In this document: positions 1 through 32,203 of the stretch, piece by piece | Layout: each line of letters starts with the position of its first letter | Numbering within the stretch: position 1 is the first letter of the stretch | Source: a virus | Virus record (IMG/VR): IMGVR_UViG_3300003350_000001 | Location: 1 to 39,719 of that record | DNA length: 39,719 nucleotides | Strand: one strand, 5' to 3' | Translations under genes and position numbers: made by a program | The notes under the pieces: generated by a model | Told to the model about the DNA's origin: nothing | What the model saw: only the letters and a program-made list of their open reading frames with translations | Database searches by the model: none

Positions 1-443
1 GTCGTTGGCGTATAAGTTCCGCCGGTTTTAAAAACTTGGACATTGAGTAAACCTGTATTACCTCCACTCGCTGCAATCGTGATAGAACCTGTGCCGTTCG
101 TGATGGAAATACCACTCCCCGCCGTTAGGGTTGCAGCCGTTGGCGTCCCACTCGTGTTACCGATGATAAGTTGTCCATTGGTCATTGCTGCCCATGCGAC
201 AACGCCCGAAGAACTTGTAACAAGGCTTGCTGAATCGGTTGGGTTTAATGCAAGAAAGGTTGCAACGCCTGTTCCTAATCCCGATACGCCGGTACTAATA
301 GGCAAACCCGTACAGCTTGTCAATGTACCGCTCGAGGGGGTGCCAAGAGCGGGTGTAGTTAAACTGGCGGAAGTAGAACCTACAAATTCCGCTGTTCCGG
401 TTTGACTTGAAAGACTGGTATTGACTGCATTATTGGTTGCCAT
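1..443 (-). CDS. Partial copy (the 5' 443 nt, about 147 N-terminal codons) of the Gly-rich tail-fibre paralogue. It is cut by the window edge and duplicates 37103-37545.
   Basis: ATG at 443-441 preceded by GAGGATGAGAT. The sequence is identical to 37103-37545. Confidence 0.85.
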   Translation of the reverse strand, partial: MATNNAVNTSLSSQTGTAEFVGSTSASLTTPALGTPSSGTLTSCTGLPISTGVSGLGTGVATFLALNPTDSASLVTSSSGVVAWAAMTNGQLIIGNTSGTPTAATLTAGSGISITNGTGSITIAASGGNTGLLNVQVFKTGGTYTPT

Positions 444-456
444 ATCTCATCCTCTA

Positions 457-1173
457 CTAATTATAAGTAATATTACCTTGTGGGCCACCTAATACTGTCC
501 AGGTCGTATTCGCTACCACACACAAAAGTGTTAAAGAATCGTACTGATTAGTGGATGCCAAATAACCACCTGTACCTGTAGTTGTAACGGATGAACCGAT
601 ATGAATTAATTGCGATGCATTTTGAGCAATTTGCCATCCACCGGCACCCAAACCTTGCATCTGAATAATCGAACCTACCGCGGCCGTTGAAGGAAGCGTT
701 AAGGTTACAAGGCCAGCATTGTTGCTGATGTAGCCTGAGTTAACCGCCATTGCTTGTGTGGTTCCTGTAACGACTGTCCAGTTATTAGCAACATCGGTGG
801 TTGCAATCGTGATAGAACCTGTGCCGTTCGTGATGGAAATACCACTCCCCGCCGTTAATGTTGCAGCGGTTGGTGTCCCGCTCGTGTTACCGATGATAAG
901 TTGCCCATTGGTCATTGCTGCCCATGCGATAACACCGGAAGAATTCGTAACCAATGAGGCCGATGCTGTTGTATTGGCAGCAAGAAATGCTTCAATACCA
1001 GTTCCTAACCCAGAAACGCCGGTACTAATAGGCAATCCTGTGCAATTGGTAAGTGTGCCACTGGTTGGTGTTCCTAAAAGAGGCGTCACAAGCGTTGGAC
1101 TGGTAGATCCTACAAAATTTCCGGCGCCTGTTTGTCCGCTTAAGCTGGTATTAACTGAATTATTAGTTGCCAT
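457..1173 (-). CDS. Tail-fibre paralogue, 238 aa (shared N-terminal module plus beta-rich C-terminal domain)
   Basis: ATG with AAGGAG Shine-Dalgarno (SD). The first ~125 aa are near-identical to the 351-aa paralogue. The C-terminal domain is homologous to that of the 374-aa protein (W-x-VVTGTTQ ... GAGGW ... QGNIT). Confidence 0.75.
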   Translation of the reverse strand: MATNNSVNTSLSGQTGAGNFVGSTSPTLVTPLLGTPTSGTLTNCTGLPISTGVSGLGTGIEAFLAANTTASASLVTNSSGVIAWAAMTNGQLIIGNTSGTPTAATLTAGSGISITNGTGSITIATTDVANNWTVVTGTTQAMAVNSGYISNNAGLVTLTLPSTAAVGSIIQMQGLGAGGWQIAQNASQLIHIGSSVTTTGTGGYLASTNQYDSLTLLCVVANTTWTVLGGPQGNITYN

Positions 1174-1182
1174 GTTATCTCC

Positions 1183-2307
1183 TTATGTGACCGTAATATT
1201 CCCTTGAGGTGCAACGACCAGATGCCATTCGGTATTTAAAACCGTACACACCATATAAAGCGCATCGTTTTCATTCGTTGCTGCTAATGAACCGCCAGAA
1301 CTTGTGGTCTGCGATCCTAAAACAATGGTTTGTCCTACACCACATTGAATAAGCCAACCACCGGCACCTTTTCCAACCACGTTAATTTCATCTCCGACTG
1401 CGCTTGCAGCGGGTAACGATAATGTGACTAAACTTGCATTATTAGCAATATAGCCATTATTAGATGCCATCACTTGTGTGGTTCCTGTTACGACATTCCA
1501 GGTAAAAGCAGCCGTTCCTGTCGCTGCAATCGTAATACTTGCCGCACCATTGGTAATAGAAATATTGGTACCGGCTGTAATCGTTGCCGCCGTTGGCGTT
1601 GCTCCCGTAGATCCTATAATAATTTCACCGTTGGTCATGGAACTACTAAAGCCAGGAACGCCAGATGAGTTTGTGACTAAGGTTGCGCTTGCTGTTCCGG
1701 CAGCAATACCTGTGCTTAAAGGAAGTCCGGTACAATTGGTTAGAATACCGCTCGCAGGTGTTCCTAATAAAGGTGCTGTAAAAATAGGCGCATCAAACGT
1801 GGGAGAACTCGTGGTATCGATGTCTTGCGGAAGTGTTAGTGTGACGTCACCTGTTTCGGGCGTTCCGCTAGTACCATTTGCAAACACTTGATGCGCCGTT
1901 CCGATAATCGCCGTAGTTACACTTGCTGATGTAAAACTAAGTTGTCCTGAACCATTCGTATAAAGAAAAGTATTGGGTGCACCGTCAGAAGTTGGCCAGC
2001 GTAAATGATCAAATACCAATGCGCCGGATCCGATGGGTGTAATATCAATATCAATATTGGAATCACTACCGCCAGCCGTGATTAAAACGCCCGTTCCGGT
2101 GGATGAATTGGAAAAAAGCGGATAATTAACGGCTAATGCACCCACGGTCTCATAACGAAACAGATAATTGCCGCTACTATCTTTTATACCGGTTCCCGGA
2201 AAATCAAATTGAAAGTTTTCAGTGGGAGCACTCGGACGCAAACCGACGGGAATATCGCCAATTTGCATTTCACCGCCGACGGTAAATTGCGAAAATTTTA
2301 CTTCCAT
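1183..2307 (-). CDS. Tail-fibre protein, 374 aa, with a unique N-terminal (probable virion-anchor) domain followed by shared fibre modules
   Basis: AAGGAG SD. It contains [24 protein letters not shown] (shared with the 323-aa protein) and [16 protein letters not shown] plus ISITNG modules (shared with the 238- and 351-aa proteins). Confidence 0.75.
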
Positions 2308-2335
2308 CCTTGGACTCCTTTAAATGAGTTATCCC

Positions 2336-2689
2336 TTAATTAAGTGTTTCAATTGCATATAATGTCACACTGATATCGGTCGTTGCTGTTGCCGTAAAAA
2401 AATGTAATACATCACCTGCTTTGACTTCTCGGATTAATGTACCATTAATCAATTCACTGGTAGTTGCAGCAAACGTATCGCCAGCAGGAACAGCAGCCGT
2501 TTGATTTAATGCAACCCATACTTCGGCGGTATATTTTACTTTCATTAAGGCTTTAAATCGTGGTGCACTGCCAGGAATGGTTAAAGTAGTATCGGTCGTT
2601 GCAGCAAGCGTTGAACTGTAAAATAAATTACTGAAATTTAAACCAGTATCATCAATAGGTTGTTGTGCAATGTAATAAGGGGTTTTCAT
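2336..2689 (-). CDS. Hypothetical small beta-rich protein, 117 aa, in the tail module
   Basis: ATG with AAAGGA SD. It is tightly packed between the spike and fibre genes. I recognise no family. Confidence 0.6.
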   Translation of the reverse strand: MKTPYYIAQQPIDDTGLNFSNLFYSSTLAATTDTTLTIPGSAPRFKALMKVKYTAEVWVALNQTAAVPAGDTFAATTSELINGTLIREVKAGDVLHFFTATATTDISVTLYAIETLN

Positions 2690-12010: not shown

Positions 12011-13117
12011 TTACATAGGTAATGCGATCATCATGGAATATTCATCCACGAGTGTGCTTCCCCAAATAATGTCATGTACCATTCCGCGTTGGTTTTGACC
12101 AAAGAGCGAGCCGAAATACTGACGAAGCGATGCACCACTATTCGGATCCTGTGCGACGGATGTTGGATATGGCACTTCTTCCGGCAATTTTGGCATTGCA
12201 AGGTATAAGGGATTACCGGCCGTCATTAAACCACATCGGTGAGTCGGTAATACCGTTACTTGCATACCTGCAACAATTGGACTCGTAATATTTTGATCTT
12301 GGCCTGCGGCTGCTTGAAGGGCCGGATAGATATTTACAGTGACTTGACTACCCCCTGTGCTTGCTGCATTGGCGGTTGCTCTGAATTGAACCGGTGATTG
12401 TGTAGGTTGATGGCCAATAAAGGTTAAGAAACGTAAATTTGGCTGACCCGCTACGCCATCACTAAACTGGAACTTATCATAAGTCATGATGGAATTTGGA
12501 TCATCGGCAGCAGCAGTTCCACTGAACGTGATTTGAATCACACCACCTTCCGAGTTAGTAACCGTACTCACCACAGTTAATACGCTGCCGTCATTTCCTT
12601 CTGTGCCTGCCGTATGGGTTTTCAATAAGTTGGATTGATACCAATCGCAATTTGAAAACTTACCAATTTCCCAACTCATCATTTCCCGATTATTTTTTTC
12701 AATCGTGAATTGATTTAATCCACTATTGATAATTCCTGGGAATGTGATATCGGATAAATAACCTTTGGTATTGTCTTTTGCCGCACCGAAGTTACGGAAA
12801 AATGCCAATGCATTTCCTAATTGAAGGTAAGAACTGATGTTTGTTACACCATCTCCGTAGAAACGGAACGTATTGGTTTCTGCGAGTGCAGATACGTTTG
12901 CTTCTACTTTGGTTCCAATTTCAGCAATCGCGGATTTACCGAATACTTCCATGTAATCACGGACGTTGAAGATAAATTGTTGTGCAGTGAATTCATATGC
13001 AGTCGATGCTTGTTGAGAAACCGTTAATTGTTGAACACGCTGAACCGCAGATTGGAACGATACGACAAGACTGTCGGTCGTTGTAAACCGTGGTGGCAAG
13101 TCAAAACTTACTGTATC
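12011..13117 (-). CDS. Major capsid protein, exon 2 (368 codons plus stop). It joins to exon 1 at 13365.
   Basis: Position after the scaffold gene and suitable size. The ORF-track ATG at 13120 lacks an SD and has an in-frame TGA directly upstream. See the intron feature. Confidence 0.8.
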   Translation of the reverse strand, partial: DTVSFDLPPRFTTTDSLVVSFQSAVQRVQQLTVSQQASTAYEFTAQQFIFNVRDYMEVFGKSAIAEIGTKVEANVSALAETNTFRFYGDGVTNISSYLQLGNALAFFRNFGAAKDNTKGYLSDITFPGIINSGLNQFTIEKNNREMMSWEIGKFSNCDWYQSNLLKTHTAGTEGNDGSVLTVVSTVTNSEGGVIQITFSGTAAADDPNSIMTYDKFQFSDGVAGQPNLRFLTFIGHQPTQSPVQFRATANAASTGGSQVTVNIYPALQAAAGQDQNITSPIVAGMQVTVLPTHRCGLMTAGNPLYLAMPKLPEEVPYPTSVAQDPNSGASLRQYFGSLFGQNQRGMVHDIIWGSTLVDEYSMMIALPM

Positions 13118-13364
13118 CATTCATATTCAATTAAGGGCGTTACTCTTAATCCGCCTTTCGGCAGCTACCAATCACTTGGCAGATTAGACTATATCTTCAC
13201 CCCTATTGGGGGCTGTGCGCTTCCACTCACTTGAGTGTACGAGCTTTCGCTCTAGTCGTTGCACCTTCCTCTTTCGAGGCTCGGCTCAGGATTGTCTACT
13301 TGAGAGTTCCCCTGAATTCACACAGTAACTACCAGCAATTACTCACTGGCGAGGCTGACAGTTA
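13118..13364 (-). ncRNA. Group I self-splicing intron, ORF-less, 247 nt, IA-like (has P7.1/P7.2 and P9.1/P9.2 hairpins)
   Basis: On the minus strand there is an exact S element AAGAUAUAGUCU (13197-13186). R-like GUGCAACGACUAGA lies at 13264-13251, P-like AAUUCAGGGGAA at 13318-13307 and Q-like AAUCCUGAGCC at 13293-13283. There are three GAAA tetraloop hairpins and one GUGA. P1 pairs exon AGGU with intron GCCU (13355-13352). The 3' terminal base is G. The splice is in frame. Confidence 0.8.
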
Positions 13365-13505
13365 ACCTAAGTTCTTCGGGATATCATCATTGAATCTCTG
13401 AAACTTTTTATTGGAAGTACTGATGAATGCAAATGTATTTAAAAGTAACGCAAGGTTAGACCTATTATAGGTAACAACTTGCTGCAATATATTGACTGGT
13501 GCCAT
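13365..13505 (-). CDS. Major capsid protein, exon 1 (47 codons: MAPVNILQQVVTYNRSNLALLLNTFAFISTSNKKFQRFNDDIPKNLG)
   Basis: AAGGAG at 13518-13513, 7 nt before ATG 13505. The exon is too short for the ORF track. Joined to exon 2 it gives NLG|DTVSFDLPPRF. Confidence 0.75.
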
Positions 13506-13573
13506 TGCAAAACTCCTTTTTTGAAAGAAATGTTTTGCAACGACAAATTGAATTTATTAGAAGATATTAAGGC

Positions 13574-14430: not shown

Positions 14431-14688
14431 CTATCGTTTCTTTTTTTTCTTTTCCATCATTCCTTTTTTTTCATCCATTCTTTTTTCTTTCTTCATTTTC
14501 TCTTCGTGATGTTTCATCTTTTCTTTATGCATTTCTCTTTTCATGGGTTTATCTCCTTTTTTTTCTCGTGCTTGTGAATAGGCAATAGCAACTGCCTGTT
14601 TTTGTGGTTTACCTGCTTGGACTTCTCTTCTTATATTTTCTGAAAAACCTTGACGGGTTTTAGCAGCTTTTCCTTTCACTAATGGCAT
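14431..14688 (-). CDS. Small highly basic protein, 85 aa (Lys-rich tail KKKKKR)
   Basis: AAGGAA SD. The N-terminal KGKAAKTRQGFSENIRREVQAGKPQKQAVAIAYSQARE resembles small conserved phage/bacterial basic proteins, recalled from memory only. Confidence 0.6.
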   Translation of the reverse strand: MPLVKGKAAKTRQGFSENIRREVQAGKPQKQAVAIAYSQAREKKGDKPMKREMHKEKMKHHEEKMKKEKRMDEKKGMMEKKKKKR

Positions 14689-14699
14689 AATAAATTTCC

Positions 14700-14888
14700 T
14701 TATCGTTTTCGCATACCTTTAAACGTCTCTGCTAAAATCGCTTGCTTTCTCGTTCTTGGATTTTTGCTTTTTTCTGCTTTTTCAAGTTTTGCTTCAGGAA
14801 TATTCTTTCCTTTTTTAATGTGTAATTTTTCACGAAGCGCACCTTTTTTGATAGCGGCACCCTGGATCCATTTTTTATTTTCCTTCAT
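14700..14888 (-). CDS. Small basic protein, 62 aa
   Basis: AAGGAGG SD. Overlaps the portal stop by 14 nt. Confidence 0.6.
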   Translation of the reverse strand: MKENKKWIQGAAIKKGALREKLHIKKGKNIPEAKLEKAEKSKNPRTRKQAILAETFKGMRKR

Positions 14889-17004
14889 GAGCTCCTCCTT
14901 GATTTAATTCATTTAAATGACTACTAATATTAATCGCGGACTCTACCGCAGTTCTACTATTTTCTGCATCCACTTCTGCAAGTTTTACTTCATTTTCTAC
15001 ATTTTGATTCTGAATCTTCGCCATAAGCTCAACAAATTTAGTTTGTGAATCACGCTCTTTAATTGCAACATTGGCAGCATCTAACTTCGCTCTTTCTTCA
15101 ATGGCCATCATCTCCAATTGTGTTTGTGTGGGCGTTTGCAATTCTTTTTGTGCTTGTTGCATTTGCATTTGTTGCATTTTAGATTGTGCTTGTGCTTGTT
15201 GCATTTGCATTTGCTGTTGGGCTTTTTGCATTTGCGCTTGTTCTTTTTCGTATTCGATTGCTTTCTCTTTTAAGGAATCAATGCCGCGTATTTCGATATT
15301 ATCCAATAGGGTTTGTAATCCTTTTTGGCTAAAGAATTGGGCAAAATTGGGCATTGATTGACTTAAACTTACAATCGTTTGCAAAGCAATTTCCTTTTGC
15401 ATCGCAAAGTTAACCCCGACTTCGACTTTGACTTGTAGGTGATTCGGGTCATAGTTCATATAAAGAGATCCTTTTTTATTGATCTCAAAATATTCACGTT
15501 TCCCATCCGGTAAAAGAATCGGAAGACTGCGTGGTGTTCGATAATAACGCGGCATCATATCCATGTAGATATGTGCAATTCGACTTAATCCTTTAATCAA
15601 TCCAACAATATAAGGCATCGATGCGTTGTTGCTTTGTATGGCACTTCTTGCAAATGCAATCCCTGACATCTGACTATTATTTTGACCGGCTGCACCGTCA
15701 TAACTTCCTAAAATGATTTGGGTCATTTCATCCGACATCCTGAACGTTTCGGCAATTTGAGGTGGTATAGGGGTTCTTACGACTTCACGCGGAGGCGGCA
15801 ATGTGACATCCGGATTTCGTGTATCCAAAAAGTGATTGTAGATGAGTGTATCTGCTTTTTGCACATTCTGATAAGCGGTTTGATAATCAGCCGGAATAGA
15901 TTCTAAAGCTACAATAAATTTATGTTGAATGGTGTTTTCAAGTTCATTGCCAAGCGATTGGCCCGCTAAATTCTTAAGACGTTGAATACCCATCGCATGA
16001 AAGACATAAGGCCGTGTCATTTGCACATAGGCCGCTCCATCTCGAAGATTGACACTATTTCCATCGATAAAGACTAACGGCAGATATTTGTAATCCGTCT
16101 CGCATACATCTAATAATGCGGACTCACAAAATCGATACCGCACAATTTTTTCAATAATCGTTTTTCTTTTTTTAACAATGACGGGGGGTTGTTCAATGAT
16201 ACCTTGCTCTTCCCACTGCTCTAGGAATTTCTCATATTCTTTTTCAAGAACGGAGTGGCCATTTGATAATTTAACAATCGTTTCTTTCTTAAATTGTTTT
16301 TCGTAATAGTCACAAACTAAAACAATTTCTTCTTGTTCATTCTGAAAAGACCAATCAAAACCGGATAATGAACGGGTAAATTGCATCTCTTCTGCGATTT
16401 TAATACCAAACGTATTTTCAAAAGATTCTTTGGTCATAGGATAAAGTTCGGCACAAAACCGACCATCTCCTTTATGTGAATCACGGGCGAGTGGATCAAA
16501 AACACACAGGGTTGGATCAAAGACGCGTTCAATACAGATGTTTTGCTCAAAGCTCTTTTCATTGATGTAATCGGTATAAATTTTAACGACCGAAAAGCCA
16601 CCCGCTAATAAATCCGAATAGGCATTATATTGAAGCATGTCATTTTCACCATCAAAGAAAACGGCACGAAGATGGGCTTCAACCACTTCTAAAGTGGCAA
16701 TAAATTGTTTATCGAGCATGGAAAGCGGCACACCATCAGCGGCCCGAACCGTTAATGCTGGCTGTTGTTTGGCAAATTCGCCGCGAAGGCGCGAGATATA
16801 CGCTTCTAAGATATTAAATTCGATGGTAGGTACGCCCCTGTCTGCAAGGGTCGCATTTTCAGTATCATCCAAAGAGGTTTTAAAGACAAACCGCGTGAAC
16901 ATTTCATAACGGGTTATATTGTCTGCAAAATAAAGGTGAGCTTCTTCGACCGATTTTTTAAGTAATTCTAATCTATCGGTATGTTTTTTCGCGATATCCG
17001 GCAT
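14875..17004 (-). CDS. Portal protein, 709 aa, with a long C-terminal Q/M-rich coiled coil
   Basis: Its size and its position immediately after terL (32-nt overlap) fit a portal. The C-terminal helical extension is reminiscent of the P22 portal barrel. Confidence 0.8.
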   Translation of the reverse strand: MPDIAKKHTDRLELLKKSVEEAHLYFADNITRYEMFTRFVFKTSLDDTENATLADRGVPTIEFNILEAYISRLRGEFAKQQPALTVRAADGVPLSMLDKQFIATLEVVEAHLRAVFFDGENDMLQYNAYSDLLAGGFSVVKIYTDYINEKSFEQNICIERVFDPTLCVFDPLARDSHKGDGRFCAELYPMTKESFENTFGIKIAEEMQFTRSLSGFDWSFQNEQEEIVLVCDYYEKQFKKETIVKLSNGHSVLEKEYEKFLEQWEEQGIIEQPPVIVKKRKTIIEKIVRYRFCESALLDVCETDYKYLPLVFIDGNSVNLRDGAAYVQMTRPYVFHAMGIQRLKNLAGQSLGNELENTIQHKFIVALESIPADYQTAYQNVQKADTLIYNHFLDTRNPDVTLPPPREVVRTPIPPQIAETFRMSDEMTQIILGSYDGAAGQNNSQMSGIAFARSAIQSNNASMPYIVGLIKGLSRIAHIYMDMMPRYYRTPRSLPILLPDGKREYFEINKKGSLYMNYDPNHLQVKVEVGVNFAMQKEIALQTIVSLSQSMPNFAQFFSQKGLQTLLDNIEIRGIDSLKEKAIEYEKEQAQMQKAQQQMQMQQAQAQSKMQQMQMQQAQKELQTPTQTQLEMMAIEERAKLDAANVAIKERDSQTKFVELMAKIQNQNVENEVKLAEVDAENSRTAVESAINISSHLNELNQGGAHEGK

Positions 17005-18644: not shown

Positions 18645-19853
18645 TTAACTCATAGCAAGTTTCGGAGTAGAAACAGGATCCATGGAAATAATCTGAGAAG
18701 GAATAGGTCCATTTTTTTCGATCTCACTTCCACTTAATCCATTATGAAGACGCAATATATATTCTACATCGGAATGCCCATTTTTCTTGGCATGATCTAA
18801 CGCTGTCCATCCATTACGGTCGTATAGATTTGTATGTGCGCCCGTCTTTAATAAAACAGAAACACATTTTAAATGGCCTCTTGCAGCAGCTAATATTAAG
18901 GGAGTTTTCTCAAAGAATCCTTTTACAATTGCACATAGAGAATCTGGCATGCCTCTGCCATTTACATCTACTCTCTTTGATTTAATGGTTTCTTCCAGCG
19001 CTCCTGCATGCCCCTCATGAGCCAACCATTTTATCTCTTCTTGATTCTTTTTATGTTGCCGACATGGCATCCCATAAAATAATGTATCCAATGTGCCACT
19101 AAAAGGATTCCAAAAATTGGTTCCCAAATCTCGTCGAGTTACAGGAACTGATGTGGAGTCGGAATATCTTTCTATTTCGTCCTCTTGAATTTTATCCCCA
19201 GTATTAATTACAAGCACAGGACATGAAACATCATTACGGGGACATGATAATTCTTCCTCTAGCATCCGCATTATTTCGGCCTGATCTTCTTTTCCTTTTA
19301 GCATTTTATTGTCTTCTCGTAACTGTCTATTTTCTTCTAGTAACTGTCTATTTTCTTCTAATAACTGTCTATTCTCTTCTCGCAGCTGTTTATTCTCTTC
19401 TCGCAGCTGTTTATTTTCTTCTCGTAGCTGTTTATTTTCTTCTCGTAGCTGTTTATTGTCTTCCATGACTAAATTTAATTTTTCATTTAACTCATCAATG
19501 ACACGATTTTTTTCTTTAATGGTAATGCTTTGAATTTCTACCTGTTGTTTTAAATATTTGATGTCGCGTGCCTGGTCATCAATTTTAGTAAGCGCCGTTT
19601 GCAAAAGCTGTTCTAATCGATTGACTTGATTTTCTAATCGAATTATTTTTTGGTCGGATGTTTCAACAGATTTTGAAGAGGCATCCACAATTTCTTTATT
19701 GGTAATAGGTATGGTTGTTTCTTTCGTTTGCATAAAAGATTCTCCAGTAATTGATAAAAATAACATCGTAAAATATTCCAAGAGTGCATCGACTCTTTTG
19801 CTCAATTTATCTAATGAATTATTTATTTCTTTTAATTCGAATGGCCTTTTCAT
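18645..19853 (-). CDS. Coiled-coil protein with a heptad-repeat array and C-terminal ankyrin repeats, 402 aa
   Basis: Eight tandem heptads of the E-E-N-K/R-Q-L-R/L type. The C-terminus has TPLILAAARGHLKCVSVLLKTGAHTNLYDRNGWTALDHAKKNGH, a canonical ANK consensus. Confidence 0.8.
   Translation of the reverse strand: MKRPFELKEINNSLDKLSKRVDALLEYFTMLFLSITGESFMQTKETTIPITNKEIVDASSKSVETSDQKIIRLENQVNRLEQLLQTALTKIDDQARDIKYLKQQVEIQSITIKEKNRVIDELNEKLNLVMEDNKQLREENKQLREENKQLREENKQLREENRQLLEENRQLLEENRQLREDNKMLKGKEDQAEIMRMLEEELSCPRNDVSCPVLVINTGDKIQEDEIERYSDSTSVPVTRRDLGTNFWNPFSGTLDTLFYGMPCRQHKKNQEEIKWLAHEGHAGALEETIKSKRVDVNGRGMPDSLCAIVKGFFEKTPLILAAARGHLKCVSVLLKTGAHTNLYDRNGWTALDHAKKNGHSDVEYILRLHNGLSGSEIEKNGPIPSQIISMDPVSTPKLAMS
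19313..19459. repeat. Seven tandem 21-bp units encoding the heptad array inside the ankyrin gene
   Basis: The unit cttctcgtaactgtctatttt and variants repeat with an exact 21-nt period. Confidence 0.9.
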
Positions 19854-20069: not shown

Positions 20070-21026
20070 ATGCCATTAAATCAAGCCTTACGCAAACAGA
20101 GTAATGTGTTGTGGTGCATTAGCATTATTCAAGATCAACGTCCCTTAGCACAAACCAAAGAAGAATTTTCCGAAATGTCGAAAGACATTCTCAATACCGA
20201 TACTATCGAGTCTTTAACCCTATGTCCTGTTGAGCTTTTACAGCGTTTTCGCCTCATGATCCAACATGGCATTGGAGAAGAAGAGGCAATTCAAAATTGC
20301 CATCGGCTAAAAGAGCAATGGTATAGCGATAATCGCCAGGAAATAGAACGATTAGAAGGCGCCAAGAAGCTTAATCTATTAAATTGGCAAGAATTCTTAT
20401 TATGGCCTGACCTTTCAAATACGCTCTATGATTTGGAGAAGTGGTATAAGGAAGATCGTGATTTTAGAAATCTAGTAGATGGGCGTGTTAAACAAGCGCG
20501 CGAAAGCATGGCGCCAGATTGCAAAATATCCAATCCTATCGAACAAACTGCCCTTTTAAAGCGCTATCTTTTTGAAGAGTGTGCGTTCCAAAAGTTTGCA
20601 GCAGGCAAAGGCTATAATTACGAAATCTATAAAACGCCCATGAATAAAGCCATGCGCAGAGTAAAGCATAATAGTGACTTTGTGCCTCCTGGCGTATTAG
20701 TAGAAGTCTATTTCACGCAATTTATGCCAGTACCTAAAAATGATTCACCACCTCGCGTGCATGAAGGACAAAACAATGGATTTTCACAGGTATTGAGTAA
20801 AAATCCCTTAAATGTTCCTGCTTTAAATGGAATTATAAAACCAAATTCGAAGCCTGAACATCAAAAATCTGCTGCACAAAAAGTATCGGAATTCATAGAA
20901 AAAACCGTTGAACTTATTCCTGAAGAACAACAAGCAAAAGCCATCGACCTATTAATTAAATTCGCAACCAAAGAAATTATACCACTGTGTTACTCACCGC
21001 AAATGAACGATTTAAAAAATATTTAA
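20070..21026 (+). CDS. Hypothetical protein, 318 aa, first gene of the kinase-csrA operon
   Basis: ATG with AAAGGGG SD. No family is securely recognised. Confidence 0.6.
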   Translation: MPLNQALRKQSNVLWCISIIQDQRPLAQTKEEFSEMSKDILNTDTIESLTLCPVELLQRFRLMIQHGIGEEEAIQNCHRLKEQWYSDNRQEIERLEGAKKLNLLNWQEFLLWPDLSNTLYDLEKWYKEDRDFRNLVDGRVKQARESMAPDCKISNPIEQTALLKRYLFEECAFQKFAAGKGYNYEIYKTPMNKAMRRVKHNSDFVPPGVLVEVYFTQFMPVPKNDSPPRVHEGQNNGFSQVLSKNPLNVPALNGIIKPNSKPEHQKSAAQKVSEFIEKTVELIPEEQQAKAIDLLIKFATKEIIPLCYSPQMNDLKNI

Positions 21027-21046
21027 TTTTAAGCAAAGGAGTCGCT

Positions 21047-22618
21047 ATGATAGAAGAAGATTTACGGATGATCGCTAAAAATTCTGTAATTGATGAATTA
21101 TTTAACCTGTTTTCTATCAACTTTTCTTGGTGTGACAAGAACGGTCACGTTTTGGGATGTAATAAAAGTACTTTTGATTTCTTTTATTATCATGTCGGAT
21201 TAGAAGATGTCATAGGAAAACATGTGAGGGATATCGCATCGCCTGAAGCATGGGAAAACACTAAAAAAGTCATCAAAACTGGCATTCCTATGGCCGATGA
21301 AGAAATCCATACCGATGAAGACGGAACGAAAACCTATTTTGTCAGCATGAAAAGCCCTCTTAAAAACGATAAAAACGAAATTATCGGTATGGTTAATATT
21401 GCGCTAGATATTACAGACCGTAAGTTACTCGAGATGGAATGGAAAAAAGCCAAAGAAGAAGCAGAACTTAATAATAAGAATAAAACTGAATTCTTATCCA
21501 ACATGCGACATGATCTAAGAACGCCCTTTAGCGGTATTTTAGGCATGTCTCAATTATTAGAATCACAAGAAGAAGACCCTGTTAAAAAAGAAAGTTTGGG
21601 CGATATCGTTGCTTCTTCAAAATCCTTATTAAATCATTTGAATGAAATTATGGAATTTGTCGAGGTAGAAAACGGAAAGATTCCACTCGTTGAGAAAGAA
21701 TTCAATATTCACGAAGTGATAAAAGACGTCTTTTTGATGCTATTGCCAGCAGCAAAAGATAAAGAATTAGATTTTGAACTATGGGTCGATAAAGAATTAC
21801 CAGAGTACCTTTTTGGGGATTCCATCCGTATTCAACGCATTTTAATGAACCTTATCACCAATGCAGTGAAATTTACGGAGAAAGGCTTTGTAAATGTGAA
21901 AGCCTATTGGAATAAAACTACCGATGAAAAAGGTATTTTACAAATTGTCGTCGAGGACAACGGGATTGGCATTCCTTCGGATAAAAGAGAGTTCATTTTT
22001 GAGAAATTCAGTCGATTAACCTCAGCTTACCATGGAGTTTATCCAGGAAAAGGCTTAGGACTTAACATCATGAAGCAATTCTTAGAAGAATTAAACGGAC
22101 AATTTGAACTTGTAAGCGAAGTCGGAAAAGGTACTACATTCACCGTGCTCATTCCGCACAAAATTTCGTTATTCAAAATAATTAAACAAAGACATTTTAA
22201 ACCCGATAGCGATAAAGTGTTATTAATCGAGGATTATCCGATTGTTTCCAAAATGTCCAAGAAGATAATGGAAAATACCAAATTTTCTAATTTTGAAGTG
22301 GATATTGCAGAAACAGGCCTCCAAGCATTAGAAATGATGGAAGGACAACACTATGATTTAATCCTCATGGATATTGGATTGCCTGACATTGATGGTTATG
22401 AATTAACCAGGCGCATTCGTGCACACAAAGACCCTTATATTGCAATAGTTCCTATTATCGCCTTAACGGCACATACCGGCATTGAGCAGAAATGTATTGA
22501 TGTTGGCATTGATGACATTCTTACCAAACCTTTAACCGAAGAAATCATAAAATCCATTCAAGACTATTTATTATTAAGGAGATCGCATCATGCTAGTACT
22601 ATCACGAAAGTTAAATGA
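21047..22618 (+). CDS. Cytoplasmic hybrid sensor histidine kinase / response-regulator receiver (PAS-HisKA-HATPase-REC), 523 aa
   Basis: Start moved to ATG 21047 (AAGGAG 6 nt upstream). H-box MRHDLRTPFSGILG, N-box NLITNAVKFT, G1 DNGIGIP, G2 GKGLGLNI, receiver LILMDIGLPDIDG ... LTKP. There is no hydrophobic TM segment. Confidence 0.85.
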   Translation: MIEEDLRMIAKNSVIDELFNLFSINFSWCDKNGHVLGCNKSTFDFFYYHVGLEDVIGKHVRDIASPEAWENTKKVIKTGIPMADEEIHTDEDGTKTYFVSMKSPLKNDKNEIIGMVNIALDITDRKLLEMEWKKAKEEAELNNKNKTEFLSNMRHDLRTPFSGILGMSQLLESQEEDPVKKESLGDIVASSKSLLNHLNEIMEFVEVENGKIPLVEKEFNIHEVIKDVFLMLLPAAKDKELDFELWVDKELPEYLFGDSIRIQRILMNLITNAVKFTEKGFVNVKAYWNKTTDEKGILQIVVEDNGIGIPSDKREFIFEKFSRLTSAYHGVYPGKGLGLNIMKQFLEELNGQFELVSEVGKGTTFTVLIPHKISLFKIIKQRHFKPDSDKVLLIEDYPIVSKMSKKIMENTKFSNFEVDIAETGLQALEMMEGQHYDLILMDIGLPDIDGYELTRRIRAHKDPYIAIVPIIALTAHTGIEQKCIDVGIDDILTKPLTEEIIKSIQDYLLLRRSHHASTITKVK

Positions 22619-25615: not shown

Positions 25616-25918
25616 TTACTTTAATGCATCCTCCGCTTTTTTAACCTGTTGTTCCATCCTATAAAATGCTTTCTGTAATTCATCGGGAAACATTTTTAAT
25701 TTCTTTGGGAATTTAGTGGCCATTCGCAATCCAATATACATCGACATCTTTTGTTCTATTTTATCCGGCGAATCAAATCCATATAAAATAGGTTGTATGT
25801 AAAAAATTAATAGATTTAAAAATGCTTTAATCTCTTTTATAGAATATTCATCTAAAAAACAATCGGTATATTTTTCAGAGAGTATTGACTTTGCTTTCTT
25901 TAATAATTTTTTATTCAT
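25616..25918 (-). CDS. Hypothetical protein, 100 aa
   Basis: ATG forms an ATGA overlap with the upstream paralogue gene. Confidence 0.55.
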   Translation of the reverse strand: MNKKLLKKAKSILSEKYTDCFLDEYSIKEIKAFLNLLIFYIQPILYGFDSPDKIEQKMSMYIGLRMATKFPKKLKMFPDELQKAFYRMEQQVKKAEDALK

Positions 25919-26151
25919 TCTTCTTGCTTCTCCTTTTCTTTTTGCATAACGTCATTAATAATTTCATCAACAAAATTAGGTACCTTACTTAAAGCCCTCA
26001 CGACGGCCATTGCTGCTACCAATGATTTGTTAGATTTTTCTGTATCTTTTGAATCAAGATTATTTGCTACCTCCTCTAAGTCATATATCATCATCTTAAA
26101 ATATTTTTTTATGTCATTAAGCGCTTCTAGTTTTAGTTTTTCATCATTCAT
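25915..26151 (-). CDS. Small acidic helical protein, paralogue 1 of 3 (78 aa)
   Basis: AAAGGA SD. About 70 percent identical by eye to the 80-aa neighbour (KLKLEALNDIKKYFKM ... VMQKEKEKQEE). Confidence 0.6.
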   Translation of the reverse strand: MNDEKLKLEALNDIKKYFKMMIYDLEEVANNLDSKDTEKSNKSLVAAMAVVRALSKVPNFVDEIINDVMQKEKEKQEE

Positions 26152-26163
26152 ATTTATTTCCTT

Positions 26164-26229
26164 TAAAAAACAATAAGTATATTTCTCAGAGAGTATTTAC
26201 TTTGCTTTCTTTAATAATTTTTTATTCAT
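26164..26229 (-). pseudogene. Duplicated 5' remnant of the 100-aa gene (MNKKLLKKAK then stop)
   Basis: Copy B of the 311-bp tandem duplication. A TCA to TAA change truncates the ORF at codon 11. Confidence 0.7.
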
Positions 26230-26468
26230 TCTTCTTGTTTCTCCTTTTCTTTTTGCATAACCTCATTAATAACTTCATCAATAAAATTAGGTACCTCAGT
26301 TAAAGCCCCCCCGATGGCCATTGCTGCTACCAATGCTTGTCTAAATTTTTCTTCATCTTTTGAATCAAGATCCTTTTCTATCTCATCTAAGTCATCTCTC
26401 AGCATCTTAAAATATTTTTTTATGTCATTAAGCGCTCGTAGTTTTAGTTTTTCATTATCCGATTTCAT
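26226..26468 (-). CDS. Small acidic helical protein, paralogue 2 of 3 (80 aa)
   Basis: See paralogue 1. Confidence 0.6.
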   Translation of the reverse strand: MKSDNEKLKLRALNDIKKYFKMLRDDLDEIEKDLDSKDEEKFRQALVAAMAIGGALTEVPNFIDEVINEVMQKEKEKQEE

Positions 26469-26483
26469 ATTTATTTTTCCTTT

Positions 26484-26717
26484 TTAATGCATTGGATCGT
26501 TTAATTCTTTATTAAATTCTTCCCAAAGAAAATCAACTCTTGATTCTAAGCTACTGAAAACACTAGCCATTGAGGCACTCACAACAATTGCTTTTTTTGA
26601 TATTTCTTCATCGTCTGAATCAAGATACTTTTCTACCTCGTTTGCGAAATTCTTTAAATCGGACAAAAATCCTTTTGATTTTTTAATCGCCGCAATTTTC
26701 AGTTCATTGGCATCCAT
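26484..26717 (-). CDS. Small acidic helical protein, divergent paralogue 3 of 3 (77 aa)
   Basis: Same length and shared pattern (K...A.....K.F..L.....E......LDS.D.E ... A.V...A). Confidence 0.5.
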   Translation of the reverse strand: MDANELKIAAIKKSKGFLSDLKNFANEVEKYLDSDDEEISKKAIVVSASMASVFSSLESRVDFLWEEFNKELNDPMH

Positions 26718-26729: not shown

Positions 26730-27017
26730 TTAGTGGAGGTTTCCATGTTTTTTTTTATATTGATCATAAAAATCCCTTGCGTATTCTGCATAATTTTCGC
26801 GGCCTATTTTATCAATCACTGTATTCACAATTTCTCTTGTTAATATAAGAGAAGCCTTTTGATTATGATCTAATGGATATTCAAATTCTTTCAATAAATA
26901 AATATTATAATTAAGCATTGAAAGCAAAATAGGCGTATGAAAATGAATATCCTCAATTAGATCTTCCACGTCTTCTTTTGAGGCAGTATCGAGATCAACA
27001 TGTCTTTCTTTTAACAT
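26730..27017 (-). CDS. Hypothetical protein, 95 aa
   Basis: ATG shares one nucleotide with the stop of the upstream gene (TAATG). Confidence 0.5.
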   Translation of the reverse strand: MLKERHVDLDTASKEDVEDLIEDIHFHTPILLSMLNYNIYLLKEFEYPLDHNQKASLILTREIVNTVIDKIGRENYAEYARDFYDQYKKKHGNLH

Positions 27018-27418
27018 TATTTTTCCTCTTTAAATGTTTTCTCAAAAATCTTTGCCATACGTTTAAATTGGTCTTTTTGCGTCATAAATAGTGGTAACTT
27101 CTCTCGATGATCTCCATCGACTTTACATATTATCTTGGGTGGTTTCCCTTTTCGAAAGCGGATGGATTCAACCGTACACGAACCATGTTTTTTGTCATAA
27201 CATTTAGGTAAATAATAATTCGTATCTTCAGTCCTTCGAGAGCAATCATCTATGGTTGCCTTTAATTTTCCTTTCGTAAAAAGTTCAATTTTTTTCTGTT
27301 GTTTTAGCGGAATATAACCTTTTGAACCCCATACGTAGAAGGCCGCTTTAGTGATATTTAATGATTCTGCGATTTTAGTGGCCGATCCAAAGAATTCATA
27401 AAGTTCATCGGTTGTCAT
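27017..27418 (-). CDS. Cro/YdaS-like HTH regulator with a C-terminal extension, 133 aa
   Basis: N-terminus FGSATKIAESLNITKAAFYVWGSKGYIP resembles Cro/YdaS-type HTH proteins. It is the first gene of the leftward early operon. Confidence 0.55.
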   Translation of the reverse strand: MTTDELYEFFGSATKIAESLNITKAAFYVWGSKGYIPLKQQKKIELFTKGKLKATIDDCSRRTEDTNYYLPKCYDKKHGSCTVESIRFRKGKPPKIICKVDGDHREKLPLFMTQKDQFKRMAKIFEKTFKEEK

Positions 27419-27526
27419 CAGTTTACCCCCATAAATATTAATGTATCAATATATTGTTGACATACTAACAATTAATAGATAAAGTATCAACTTACTACGT
27501 AAACACGAAGCAACTTTTAAGGAAAC
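27419..27526. promoter_or_regulatory. Divergent early promoter/operator region
   Basis: Rightward: TTGACA (27457-27462), 17 nt, TAAAGT (27480-27485). Leftward on the minus strand: TTGATA, 17 nt, TAGTAT. GTATCAA is repeated at 27443 and 27484. There is also an inverted repeat (IR), TTGTT-N8-AACAA. Confidence 0.5.
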
Positions 27527-28402
27527 ATGATGATTACTACAGAACAGAAAGAACAACGTAAGTTAGGCCTTGGAGGCTCGGACATTCCTATTGTTTTAGG
27601 ACTTTCAAGCTATAAAACGCCTTATCAACTCTATCTTGAAAAGAAAGAGACTTCGATAAGCGGTGACGAAATGTCACCGGTTCAATACTGGGGAAATCAA
27701 TTAGAGCCCGTAATCCGCGAAGAATTCTCAAAACGAAATAATGTCACGATTGAACTCCCAGATACGTTAATCCATCCATTCCATAATTTTATGCGCGCTA
27801 ATGTTGACGGATATATTAAAGAATGGGATGCGGTTCTTGAAGTCAAATGCGCAAATCAATTTATGGCCTATGAATGGGGAGAACCTGGTTGTCCAAGACA
27901 TGAAGGGGGAGAAGCTAGAAGTGATGTTATTCCCATGGCATATTTAGCGCAGGTTGCACACTATTGTATCGTAACCAATGCAACACAAGCCCATATCGCT
28001 GTATTAATCGGCGGACATGATTACCGGGAATATAAATACACAAGAGATACAGAACTTGAAAACACCATCATCGAAGCTGCTTCCGCTTTTTGGAATGCTG
28101 TGCAAAATGATTTACCACCGCCTCCTGTAAATCAAAAAGATTTACGCATGATGTTTCCTCGACATAATCCTGAAAAAACTCTTACTATTTCACAAGACGT
28201 ATCGCCTCATTTTACAAAAATGAATGAGGTCAAACGCAAAATAAAAGAACTACAGGAAATCGAAGAGGAAAGTAAATTTCAAATCATGAAACATATGGAA
28301 GATAGTGAGTGCTTAGTCGATGAATCAGGAAAACCATTGGTGACTTGGAAAACAAATAAGAAAGGATCAAGAACATTTTTATTTAAAGGAGATAAAGAGT
28401 GA
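27527..28402 (+). CDS. YqaJ/lambda-Exo-like recombination exonuclease, 291 aa
   Basis: GLGGSDIPIVLGLSSYKTPYQLY ... GNQLEPVIREEF ... ANVDGYI ... VLEVKCA are the YqaJ family motifs. Confidence 0.8.
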   Translation: MMITTEQKEQRKLGLGGSDIPIVLGLSSYKTPYQLYLEKKETSISGDEMSPVQYWGNQLEPVIREEFSKRNNVTIELPDTLIHPFHNFMRANVDGYIKEWDAVLEVKCANQFMAYEWGEPGCPRHEGGEARSDVIPMAYLAQVAHYCIVTNATQAHIAVLIGGHDYREYKYTRDTELENTIIEAASAFWNAVQNDLPPPPVNQKDLRMMFPRHNPEKTLTISQDVSPHFTKMNEVKRKIKELQEIEEESKFQIMKHMEDSECLVDESGKPLVTWKTNKKGSRTFLFKGDKE

Positions 28403-28584
28403 GCGAAATCACGCGAGAAGAATTCGAAGCCACAATTCTAGCAATATTAAATAGAGTGGGAAAAATAGAAGTATGGATACATAACATGTGTGAAATATCT
28501 AAAGCGAGAGAATTCCCAGGCTATGAACCTAATATTTATGTAACAGGAGAAGAAAATGAGCACAGCATTAACGGCACTAAATAA
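28399..28584 (+). CDS. Hypothetical protein, 61 aa (GTG start, GTGA overlap)
   Basis: AAGGAG upstream of the GTG. Confidence 0.45.
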   Translation: MSEITREEFEATILAILNRVGKIEVWIHNMCEISKAREFPGYEPNIYVTGEENEHSINGTK

Positions 28585-29443
28585 TGGCATCACTATGTGG
28601 GAAGATGCGAATAAGCTTAATGAAATCAGAAAGCTTTTTGCGCCTAAACTTACCGAAATGGAATTTCAATACTTTGTAGGGCTTGGAAAAGCGGCCGGTC
28701 TTAATCCTTTTTTAAAAGAGATTTGGTCAGTTAAATATGATGAAAAATCACCCGCACAAGTATTTATCGGTAGAGATGGTTATCGAAAAGCTGCTCAAGC
28801 TCACAGTGAATATGATTATCATCAATCCGATGCTGTTTATGAAAATGATGTTTTTGAGGTGCAGGATGGATTAGTAAAACATTCTTATAAGTTGACTGCT
28901 CGCGGCGCTTTAATTGGTGCCTATTGCATTGCAAAGCGTCACAAATCATCTCGTCCCATTTATGTATTTGCTGAATTAAAAGAATATTCCACCGGTAAAA
29001 GCATTTGGGGCACAAAGCCAGCAACGATGATTAAAAAAGTCGCTGAAAGCCAATGCCTACGCGCATGTTTTCAGGATTTACTCGGAGGAACTTATGGCGA
29101 AGAAGAAATGTCAAATGCGCAAATGGAAAATAATAATATGCGTGTGGTTAACGGTGAAACGCAAACGGAAAGACTTAAAAATATGTTAAAATCAGATAGT
29201 CAAAATAGCGATAAAATAGTCGAACCTCAAAATAAAGAAAAAATAATTAATGATGTATCAGATGAAAGTAATTACAAACCGGCAACTGATGAACAAATCC
29301 TTAGAATTGAGGTTTTAATGAATGAGAAAGAATTTGATGAACAAAAAAAGAAAAATGCCTATGCATATTTTAAGATAGAAAGTTTATCAGAATTAACCCA
29401 AGAAAAAGCAGAAAGGTTTTTAATGTTATTGGATAAGAAATAA
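28556..29443 (+). CDS. recT: RecT/Bet-family single-strand annealing protein, 295 aa
   Basis: AAGLNPFLKEIW ... IGRDGYRKAAQ, and pairing with the upstream YqaJ exonuclease. Confidence 0.75.
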   Translation: MSTALTALNNGITMWEDANKLNEIRKLFAPKLTEMEFQYFVGLGKAAGLNPFLKEIWSVKYDEKSPAQVFIGRDGYRKAAQAHSEYDYHQSDAVYENDVFEVQDGLVKHSYKLTARGALIGAYCIAKRHKSSRPIYVFAELKEYSTGKSIWGTKPATMIKKVAESQCLRACFQDLLGGTYGEEEMSNAQMENNNMRVVNGETQTERLKNMLKSDSQNSDKIVEPQNKEKIINDVSDESNYKPATDEQILRIEVLMNEKEFDEQKKKNAYAYFKIESLSELTQEKAERFLMLLDKK

Positions 29444-29719
29444 ATGAATATAAAATTGGATAAAAATATGAATGATGAACAAAAAATGAAACTTGCTTTG
29501 GATGCCTTTAAAAAAAAGGATATTGAGTATCCCTGTTCTATATGTAAGCATCATATTAGAAATGTAGCATTAACCAATCTATTTATAGGAATTGATAAAA
29601 TTGAAAATGATCGCGTCATCAATTCCATCCCAATTATTTTAATATCATGCGATAATTGCGGATACATGGATATGTACGATACAAGATTATTATGCGATCT
29701 AAAGGAAGATACAAATTAG
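29444..29719 (+). CDS. Zinc-ribbon-like hypothetical protein, 91 aa
   Basis: CSICKH ... CDNCGY Cys pairs. Confidence 0.45.
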   Translation: MNIKLDKNMNDEQKMKLALDAFKKKDIEYPCSICKHHIRNVALTNLFIGIDKIENDRVINSIPIILISCDNCGYMDMYDTRLLCDLKEDTN

Positions 29720-29752
29720 GAAAATAAAAAGTAACATTAGGATTAATATAAA

Positions 29753-30172
29753 ATGATAAACCGAGTGACCTTATTAGGGAGAGTGGGAAAAAAGGATTAT
29801 AAGAAAACGAAAAAAGGCGAGATGTTTTGCAACTTATCCATTTCAACAAATCGAAAATACATAGATTCTCACGGAAATGTACGGGAATTAATCAATTGGC
29901 ATCATGTCTATTTTTTTAATAAATTGGCAGACCTAACCAATAAATATGGAGAGATAGGCGAACTAATTTATATCGAAGGTGAGATAAGCAATAAGAAAAT
30001 AGATGACCACGGGGAATTTAAATATATCCCAATCATCACCGGCAAAGAAGTGAAGTTTATTTCAAATTATAAAAAAGATGTAGGTGATTGCTCAGCTAAT
30101 ACATATGGGAAGATTAGTGAGCAATCGGATGCATTATCCATGGATGACGATGAAGATTCAATTGGGTTTTGA
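29753..30172 (+). CDS. ssb: Single-stranded DNA-binding protein, 139 aa
   Basis: MINRVTLLGRVGKK ... WHHV.FF.KLA OB-fold pattern and an acidic C-terminal tail DDDEDSIGF. Confidence 0.8.
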   Translation: MINRVTLLGRVGKKDYKKTKKGEMFCNLSISTNRKYIDSHGNVRELINWHHVYFFNKLADLTNKYGEIGELIYIEGEISNKKIDDHGEFKYIPIITGKEVKFISNYKKDVGDCSANTYGKISEQSDALSMDDDEDSIGF

Positions 30173-30540
30173 TGGAAATGAACATAATTAATATAATAGA
30201 AAATCTTACACCAGCTTTAATAAATGGAATCGTTATTGGGGCGTTTATTTTTTTAGTATATATATTAGTTTTAGTAGATATCAAATCTATATGGAGAAAG
30301 GTAATGGATAAAGAAATAGCTTATTCCGGCGTAGCTGATACCACCATAAAAATACCTGATTCTTATCCAATTAATATTTTTATGGATCACGACGTTATTG
30401 TTTCCATCTATATTGATTCTAAAGATTCACATTATATTCGTTTTTTTCTAAAAAAAACTGGTAAATGGGTAAAAATTTATTTACCTGATGAAGAATTTAC
30501 TAAAGGGACGGTATTTGCAAGGTTTGTTTATGAAGACTGA
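30172..30540 (+). CDS. Membrane protein, 122 aa, one N-terminal TM helix
   Basis: ATG 30172 overlaps the ssb stop (TGATG). Hydrophobic segment INGIVIGAFIFLVYILVLV. Confidence 0.5.
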   Translation: MEMNIINIIENLTPALINGIVIGAFIFLVYILVLVDIKSIWRKVMDKEIAYSGVADTTIKIPDSYPINIFMDHDVIVSIYIDSKDSHYIRFFLKKTGKWVKIYLPDEEFTKGTVFARFVYED

Positions 30541-30748
30541 AGAAGAAAAACTAATAGAAAAAGAACAAGCACAAATGTTTTTAGATATGCGCGCTCTATT
30601 TCTTGATTTTCAATCATCTGTATATTGCGATAATTTCGATGATAGAAAATATTTACTAGAAAAAGGAAAGGAAATTTATTTTTCTTGGAAAAATAAGATT
30701 GTTGATGAATGGGATAAAGATGTGAAAGTACCTAATTGCACAAGATAA
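30530..30748 (+). CDS. Hypothetical protein, about 72 aa (alternative start 30488)
   Basis: ORF-track ORF 30488-30748. The internal ATG at 30530 minimises overlap with the previous gene. Confidence 0.4.
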   Translation: MKTEEEKLIEKEQAQMFLDMRALFLDFQSSVYCDNFDDRKYLLEKGKEIYFSWKNKIVDEWDKDVKVPNCTR

Positions 30749-30782
30749 TCAAGATATCTTAATCCATTAGTTTGAGGAAAAT

Positions 30783-31100: not shown

Positions 31101-31103
31101 AAT

Positions 31104-31990: not shown

Positions 31991-32203
31991 TTTTTCCTCT
32001 TTGTGTTGTCGCTTACCATTAAAATAATATTTATTAAAACTTTGATTTAAAACATCAATTAACAATAACATTATTATGGTTAAATGGGAAATTCTCGTAC
32101 AGTCGTAAAAGACCTGTTTTATGAAAGCGCCTAATTCCTCTGAATTCGAGGAAATTAGAGTTGTCGACCTCACCGATATGATTTTTTCGCATACCTGAAG
32201 TAG

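Follow-up and report, generated by a model that had tools for sequence, protein, structure and literature searches.

The viral record IMGVR_UViG_3300003350_000001 of the IMG/VR database, analysed here over its positions 1 to 39,719 as one stretch of 39,719 nucleotides (nt; hereafter, the window), raises the question of why its major capsid gene, situated on the minus strand, is represented by two separate open reading frames (ORFs), one of 47 codons and one of 369 amino acids (aa), with 247 nt between the coding parts. The initial annotation, made from the sequence alone, had ascribed this arrangement to a group I intron. According to our analysis, the segment 13364-13118 of the minus strand is, with an estimated probability of about 0.93, a group I intron of subgroup IA that carries no ORF, located between the capsid codons G47 and D48; its splicing we infer from the sequence evidence presented below.

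Capsid gene and its predicted spliced product

The upstream part of the gene has the organization of a genuine translation start. The Shine-Dalgarno sequence AAGGAG, which is also kept in the intron-less relative L001, stands before ATG 13505, and the ORF opened by this codon closes after 47 codons at TAA 13364-13362, all these coordinates having been read correctly in the initial annotation. In public gene calls on four contigs exon 1 figures as a separate 47-aa gene. In the called 369-aa ORF, in turn, the ATG (13120-13118) is made up of the three terminal intron bases. As previously noted, this codon is immediately preceded by an in-frame TGA (13123-13121), and the bases before it (TTAATTGAATATGA) contain no Shine-Dalgarno-like sequence directly upstream. 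The false start codon arises because the intron ends in AUG, and the 369-aa capsid ORF of the gene track is an artefact. The guanine-cytosine (GC) content of the segment 13364-13118 is elevated (48.2% vs 38.7% in the window), in agreement with what had been observed by eye. No ORF was found in the 247 nt apart from the antisense one at 13028-13234, and an intron-encoded homing endonuclease is thereby absent from them; the earlier dismissal of this antisense ORF was right, because stop codons interrupt it in three related loci.

Joining of 13365 to 13117 gives an in-frame protein of 415 aa, as had been calculated before, with the junction PKNLG/DTVSFDLPPRF (junction peptide NLGDTVSFDLPPR); in the predicted spliced mRNA, AACUUAGGU would be joined to GAUACAGUA. 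A search among 5.8 billion protein clusters returned 2,515 homologs of this product, and the junction was read in the best 120 of them, which are mostly 414-416 aa long and nearly all cover 97-100% of the 415-aa query at 79-91% identity, many uninterrupted homologs of 414-416 aa being covered by the spliced product to 100%. The equivalent of exon 1 is contiguous with the rest of the protein in these homologs: the sequence NLGDTVSF crosses the junction gap-free in 119 of the 120, with G at position 47 in 119 and D at position 48 in 118. A single entry among the 120 starts only after residue 46: P0014 (369 aa, 100% identical; accession SRR5277367_1254503), which stems from gene calling on the window's own contig; when contigs with this ORF were looked up, no record was returned. 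At the DNA level, the intron-less relatives read AAGAACTTAGGT/GATACCGT across the same point, and the intron-less allele L001 reads AACTTAGGT/GATACC. Excision of the 247 nt restores the protein exactly.

The product was further compared with known protein families. The profile of the major head protein PHROG 283 aligned to residues 34-405 (E 4.8e-16), spanning the junction, and some of the capsid homologs are labelled 'P22 coat protein' by JGI. The residues V50, F52, D53, L54, P55, P56 and R57 are invariant in the alignment of the best 120 homologs. The motif G-D-T-V...P-x-R-F had been taken in the initial annotation to be conserved near the N-terminus of capsid proteins of the P22 coat family; it is invariant within the clade studied here, and the capsid protein had no Pfam family match and no match at E <= 1 in a sequence search of PDB. 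The AlphaFold2 model of the capsid protein, built on a 37-sequence alignment with all members at least 79% identical, had a mean predicted local distance difference test score (pLDDT) of 44 and a predicted template modelling score (pTM) of 0.38, values too low for the model to serve in a fold comparison. Splitting of the capsid by gene callers into a 47-aa orphan and a 369-aa truncated protein has practical consequences, as the error is already present in public protein sets, and truncated capsids distort protein families, phylogenies and structure predictions.

Fold of the intron and its proposed splicing pathway

The Rfam group I intron model RF00028 (gathering score 50 bits), the search with which had been suggested in the initial annotation, matched 13374-13165 of the minus strand with 72.5 bits and E 1.2e-16 over model positions 1-253, i.e., over its full length, and for the copies of this intron in the viral loci L022, L023 and L024 the scores were 75.1-75.6 bits. 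No second Rfam match was present within the window, either at the gathering threshold or in the E-value search, and blastn of both intron types described below against the window likewise gave no additional intron. The S element AAGAUAUAGUCU occurs exactly at 13197-13186, where it had been located earlier. The last intron nucleotide is G13118, also as proposed, this being the only G that gives an in-frame join together with U at position -1 and a terminal G; the terminal G was found in nine of the nine extracted capsid-intron sequences.

The complete set of helices is listed in Table 1. Those drawn by hand in the initial annotation were borne out by comparative data: the coordinates of P1, P3, P4 and P7 coincide with those backed by covariation, and the sequence likewise contains the GAAA-capped P6a, the P7.1 and P7.2 hairpins, the CCCC/GGGG P8 and the three 3' hairpins, whose loops include GUGA and GAAA. 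The wobble pair U13365.G13355 of P1 marks the 5' splice site. The minimum free energy (MFE) fold recovered P1 to P7.2, the centroid fold also recovered P8 to P9.2, and the z-score against shuffled sequences was -2.9.

Covariation was analysed with additional intron copies from related capsid loci in IMG/VR, JGI/ENA metagenomes and Logan assemblies. In five distinct capsid-gene introns, obtained from six datasets, 97.9% of the pair cells are standard pairs, and changes on both sides occur in 19 of the 66 pairs, as compared with 6.9 +/- 1.8 in shuffles and 0-2 with slid partners; for instance, CCUC/GAGG of P6a is replaced by CGGA/UCCG, and C-G in P8 by U-A. In P2, compensatory changes were observed at three of the five pairs among the capsid introns, and the proposed P10 has one supporting compensatory change, in the locus L084, where intron C8 is changed to U together with exon G+1 to A. 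Our own covariance model of the P3-P9 core, from which P7 was left out, gave 118 matches on the fetched loci, 84 of them distinct. In this family 96.1% of the cells are paired, compensatory changes affect 42 of the 46 pairs, and the covariation score is 0.53 (0.14 in shuffles and 0.04-0.08 in slid controls). P7, although absent from the search model, is still 97.5% paired across the 84 introns. The RNA fold is under selection, because the diverged intron copies retain every helix via compensatory changes.

The assignment to subgroup IA, made earlier from the presence of the P7.1 and P7.2 hairpins, is supported by the same alignment: compensatory changes affect each of the four P7.1 pairs and each of the five P7.2 pairs, and 98.6% of the cells of P7.1 and 99.7% of those of P7.2 are paired. 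Additional hairpins in the interval separating P7's 5' strand from the 3' strand of P3 are the criterion of the subgroup (PMC3984707), and by this criterion the intron belongs to IA; its subtype is probably IA2, to which more than half of viral group I introns belong (PMC11835236).

On this basis the following course of splicing may be proposed. The late transcript would be made straight through the intron, and ribosomes starting at ATG 13505 with its good Shine-Dalgarno sequence would halt at the UAA formed by the first three intron bases, leaving the ribozyme free to fold. Group I introns residing in protein genes typically open with an in-frame stop codon, which keeps ribosomes off the ribozyme (PMC3984707). 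P1 would arise by pairing between the guide GCCU and exon AGGU, its U.G wobble designating the 5' splice site; free guanosine bound in P7 would attack at U13365; the terminal G13118 would then take the same pocket, and exon 1 would be ligated to exon 2, probably held by the short P10 (GAUA with UGUC). Translation of the spliced mRNA would yield the full 415-aa capsid protein.

Several circumstances speak against this interpretation or against parts of it. P1, with its 4 bp plus U1-A9, is short, and P10 comprises only 4 bp with one wobble. The IA2 label derives from the architecture of the element and its resemblance to introns of other phages, not from subgroup-specific models. The exact spliced 415-aa protein was absent from about 15 billion proteins, including those of run assemblies, and no RNA or protein support was found.

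The shortness of P1 and P10 could also mean that the intron is a true group I intron which is inefficient alone and either needs a host or phage protein (a maturase or a chaperone-like factor) or mainly gates capsid synthesis. Many small group I introns do get protein help in vivo. We nevertheless regard this explanation as unlikely, considering that the core is complete and is accompanied by a set of peripheral helices with GNRA loops, and that the close structural relatives in phages are classic self-splicers (PMC3984707). Moreover, the Pfam scans, which covered 40 window ORFs (ORFs under ~85 aa and several small ORFs being left out), disclosed no recognisable maturase and no HNH, GIY-YIG, LAGLIDADG or other homing endonuclease domain.

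Far less probable is that the element is a dead relic, the phage translating a 369-aa capsid from ATG 13120 and keeping the 47-codon ORF either as a remnant or as the gene of a separate small protein. Gene callers do output exactly these two ORFs, and an ATG does exist at 13120, but this codon lies within the intron at its 3' end and has no ribosome-binding sequence directly upstream; exon 1, on the contrary, keeps its own and agrees with the intron-less homologs at most positions, and among the best 120 homologs only the window contig's own ORF call is without the first 46 residues. In addition, the guide sequence still fits its exon, and the diverged copies retain all helices by compensatory changes. 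The probability that the intron is an assembly artefact or a chimera foreign to the real phage genome seems to be negligible: the window is indeed a metagenomic contig with ends overlapping by 2617 nt, and the related contig pair L077/L093 breaks near an intron, but the same 247-nt element occupies the same nucleotide position in contigs of other datasets, being 8-15% diverged there with compensatory changes, and an artefact would not evolve under structural constraint.

Other kinds of interruption were considered separately and rejected. An intein is excluded by the in-frame stop codons inside the insert, programmed frameshifting by the unchanged frame and the 247 nt that must be removed, and a group II intron by the lack of a match and the too small size of the element.

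Related introns in the capsid family and in other phages

An intron of 247-249 nt is present at the identical site in the loci L022, L023, L024, L111, L113 and L114-L117, which come from different datasets, so that the element recurs across independent samples, in at least nine datasets besides that of the window; the fold is preserved in these same-site copies. Intron-bearing contigs other than the window's come from ERZ28656156, ERZ27309394, SRR15927530 and SRR6747782, among others. End-to-end alignment of the spliced products of four loci with the window protein defined four insertion sites in the capsid gene (A, A', B and C; Table 1). The guide sequence is re-tuned to the local exon at each of the three sites A, A' and B. 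In its similarity to the site-A introns, the site-B intron falls within their own diversity (83-91%), the outgroups showing at most 80%.

The intron at site C likewise starts with UAA and ends with G, and has a 6-bp P1 (ACGGCU with GGCCGU) and no P7.1 or P7.2. With RF00028 it scored 9.9 bits and was missed; a custom model gave 21 bits at E 1e-4, and the P3-P9 fold is supported by three copies, with 22 of the 52 pairs showing compensatory changes. The loci L114, L115 and L117 possess introns at both sites A and C, which divides the gene into exons for residues 1-47, 48-92 and 93-415; the gene calls in these two-intron loci (L114 3001-4729; also L115 and L117) are fragments of 55 aa and 322 aa.

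How the introns reached different positions of one gene can be proposed only tentatively. One ORF-less lineage may possibly move among capsid-gene positions without an endonuclease, by reverse splicing into late mRNA followed by copy-back, or by core exchange. Core exchange between resident introns explains the multi-site pattern equally well as reverse splicing, and gene conversion of the core is equally open because the P1-P2 segment differs between the sites. With regard to co-conversion of the exon flanks in DNA-level homing, the intron-plus alleles all read AACTTAGGT before the intron and GA[TC]AC after it, and several intron-less alleles share these flanks. Should movement without an endonuclease prove true, the clade would offer a natural and tractable system in which to test whether group I introns can be mobile under RNA guidance within a gene that encodes a protein. 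Direct evidence on the spread of endonuclease-free group I introns is still lacking (PMC3984707), and the related loci form a compact comparative data set on this matter.

The occurrence of group I introns in phage genes was established decades ago. Introns in 363 phage records, including 104 of Staphylococcus phages, share 70-82% identity with the core of the window intron, as do introns of T4-like DNA polymerase and terminase genes. Phage IA2 introns (those of T4 td, nrdB and nrdD, SPO1 DNA polymerase, and Twort orf142 and lysin) have the same P3-P8 core with P7.1 and P7.2, and likewise GNRA-capped peripheral hairpins, the U.G wobble at the 5' splice site, the terminal G and a position within a conserved protein gene of the phage, where an in-frame stop opens the intron. 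Endonuclease genes are carried by the introns of T4 and SPO1, while the window intron is ORF-less, and its host gene, unlike those of these comparators, is a putative P22-like coat gene of an uncultured phage clade.

Introns in late phage genes, the capsid gene included, have already been published, namely in the mycobacteriophage LittleE and the lactococcal phage Tuc2009 (PMC3706429). As in the window, the major capsid gene is split there, the intron was recognised via intron-less relatives, exon 1 ends with U and the intron with G. The LittleE intron is 819 bp long and includes an endonuclease ORF, and its splicing was demonstrated by reverse transcription PCR and N-terminal sequencing (PMC3706429); the window intron, by contrast, has 247 nt and no ORF, belongs to a different sequence lineage, and is known here from its sequence. 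What is new in the present case are introns of 82-90% identity at three capsid positions with matched guides, together with a second intron type and two-intron genes. With them, a widespread uncultured P22-like clade would be added to those phages whose most strongly expressed late gene accommodates ribozymes.

In collaborative homing, a free-standing endonuclease mobilises a group I intron devoid of an ORF (PMC3984707). The window clade resembles such systems in having an ORF-less intron in a conserved phage gene and coexisting intron-plus and intron-minus alleles, but collaborative homing needs a partner endonuclease, and none was found in the 40 ORFs tested of the window genome. Related nuclear rDNA introns at different rDNA positions are regarded as circumstantial evidence of reverse splicing (PMC3984707, PMC1299323). 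There, as in the capsid clade, close relatives occupy different positions in one gene family, and the guide fits its own flank; the target in the capsid clade is, in contrast, a phage protein-coding gene. An essential phage gene interrupted by more than one small ORF-less group I intron, as in L114, L115 and L117, also occurs in Twort, whose orf142 has three introns (Landthaler and Shub 1999, as cited in PMC6669764), and in the Jug phages, with introns of about 206 nt in a multi-intron gene (PMC12880540), although the window itself has one intron only.

Further observations concern related elements elsewhere. In Podoviridae sp. ctn9Y15 (L118; GenBank MW202674.1, 16569-18084), a circular genome of 36.6 kb from Manatee Spring, the 'P22 coat protein' is annotated as two coding sequences (CDS) split by a 'hypothetical protein', so that at least one GenBank phage record divides a coat gene into two CDS flanking a comparable insert. 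The gap contains an insert of the site-C type, 75% identical to that of L027 over 111 nt, and judging from the sequence it is probably an unannotated intron. On several unrelated viral contigs (L083/L046, L064, L099, L055 and L074/L048/L045/L044), introns of this family occur in groups of two to four within 1-3 kb, for instance three between 702 and 2020 in L083 and four matches in L064. In L110, an intron copy with an enlarged P6 lies in an apparent DNA polymerase A gene.

Feature coordinates and genome context

Table 1. Coordinates of the capsid locus, of the intron helices, of insertion sites in related capsid genes and of neighbouring genes. Helix positions in parentheses count from intron base 1, which is window position 13364 (minus strand).
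Feature	Position	Strand	Details	Basis
Shine-Dalgarno sequence AAGGAG	13513..13518	-	7 nt upstream of true capsid ATG 13505-13503	direct sequence reading
Capsid exon 1	13365..13505	-	47 codons, MAPVNILQQ...IPKNLG, ends U13365	ORF list and homolog N-termini
Group I intron (predicted), ORF-less, 247 nt	13118..13364	-	in-frame UAA start, GAAUG end, omega G 13118
Capsid exon 2	12011..13117	-	368 codons, DTVSFDLPPRF...IALPM, and stop 12013-12011	ORF list, homolog alignment
P1 and internal guide	13352..13368	-	exon AGGU 13368-13365 with intron GCCU 13355-13352 (G10-U13)	sequence, Rfam alignment, MFE fold
P10 (proposed)	intron UGUC 13360-13357 with exon-2 GAUA 13117-13114	-		sequence
P2 hairpin	13350-13346 with 13335-13331 (15-19 with 30-34)	-	10-nt loop UGAGUAAUUG	MFE fold agrees
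Catalytic core (P3-P8)	13187..13325	-		covariation
P3	13325-13319 with 13219-13213 (40-46 with 146-152)	-		covariation
P4	13315-13310 with 13291-13286 (50-55 with 74-79)	-		covariation
P5	13305-13303 with 13297-13295 (60-62 with 68-70)	-		covariation
P6	13285-13283 with 13265-13263 (80-82 with 100-102)	-		covariation
P6a	13279-13276 with 13271-13268 (86-89 with 94-97)	-	GAAA loop	covariation
P7	13257-13253 with 13191-13187 (108-112 with 174-178)	-		covariation
P7.1	13252-13249 with 13244-13241 (113-116 with 121-124)	-	GAAA loop	covariation, MFE fold
P7.2	13237-13233 with 13228-13224 (128-132 with 137-141)	-		covariation, MFE fold
P8	13211-13208 with 13203-13200 (154-157 with 162-165)	-	CCCC/GGGG	covariation
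P9	13180-13176 with 13171-13167 (185-189 with 194-198)	-	GUGA loop	covariation, centroid fold
P9.1	13164-13160 with 13155-13151 (201-205 with 210-214)	-	GAAA loop	covariation, centroid fold
P9.2	13150-13145 with 13135-13130 (215-220 with 230-235)	-	9-nt loop with conserved UAACG	covariation, centroid fold
Site A, G47/D48	window and others		247-249 nt; guide GCCU, exon AGGU	
Site A', K44/N45, 9 nt upstream of site A	L084 5629-5385	-	82-86% identical to site A; guide GGCU, exon AGCU	
Site B, L147/G148	L077 1057-1304; L093 (~10-257)		core 87-90% identical to site A, unrelated P1-P2; guide GAGC, exon GCUU	
Site C, A92/Q93	L027 1476-1678; L114 3529-3730; L115; L117		different 203-nt ORF-less type	
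Upstream neighbour of capsid, 232 aa	13574..14272	-	putative scaffolding protein	position only
P22-type portal	14875-17004			Pfam
Ankyrin-repeat protein	18645-19853	-		Pfam
Hybrid PAS-HisKA-HATPase-receiver sensor kinase	20987-22618	+		Pfam
Legionella-type major outer-membrane porin	33862-34686	-		Pfam Legionella_OMP, E 8e-44

The genes around the capsid follow the order portal, small ORFs, putative scaffold and capsid. The putative scaffold matched neither Pfam nor PHROG, and is found in the same position with 70-72% identity in related loci. Two strongly lysine-rich small ORFs (85 aa and 62 aa) are situated at 14431-14888 of the minus strand between the portal and the putative scaffold; the 85-aa one gave no Pfam match.

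The first 2,617 nt of the window (1-2617) are repeated exactly at 37103-39719. Because the start of the window recurs at its end, the real unit is 37,102 bp, and the repeat means that the genome is circular or terminally redundant, or else that the assembly wrapped around. Packaging genes are represented by the P22-type portal, a large terminase and a Sf6-type small terminase. The module at 27017-32729 comprises a Cro-like regulator, a YqaJ exonuclease, RecT, SSB and a serine resolvase, as well as a ParE toxin and, upstream of it, an RHH-like antitoxin ORF (32264-32479), and such a composition is typical of temperate or plasmid-like elements; no tyrosine-type integrase turned up among the ORFs tested by Pfam.

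The porin, the ankyrin-repeat protein and the sensor kinase are unusual cargo for a phage. The sole relatives of the porin in the plasmid database come from Legionella plasmids (24% identity), and these relatives, together with the GC content of the window, hint at a host in or near Legionellales. A scan of 185,579 species genomes yielded only two contigs, both intron-less, from metagenome-assembled genomes (MAGs), one being a Myxococcales bog MAG and the other a Mucilaginibacter MAG. No host was assigned on their basis, because both are probably mis-binned phage contigs.

Two further features were also observed. A 235-nt direct repeat of 85% identity (72-305 and 802-1035, and again 37174-37407 and 37904-38137) falls in the region of a 238-aa ORF (457-1173, minus strand) and its neighbour, and may have arisen by duplication inside a tail-fibre-like region. 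At 25915-26717 of the minus strand, a small tandem gene family is formed by three neighbouring paralogous ORFs (77-80 aa), the members of which share the sequences LNDIKKYFKM and VPNF(V/I)DE(I/V)IN(D/E)VMQKEKEKQEE.

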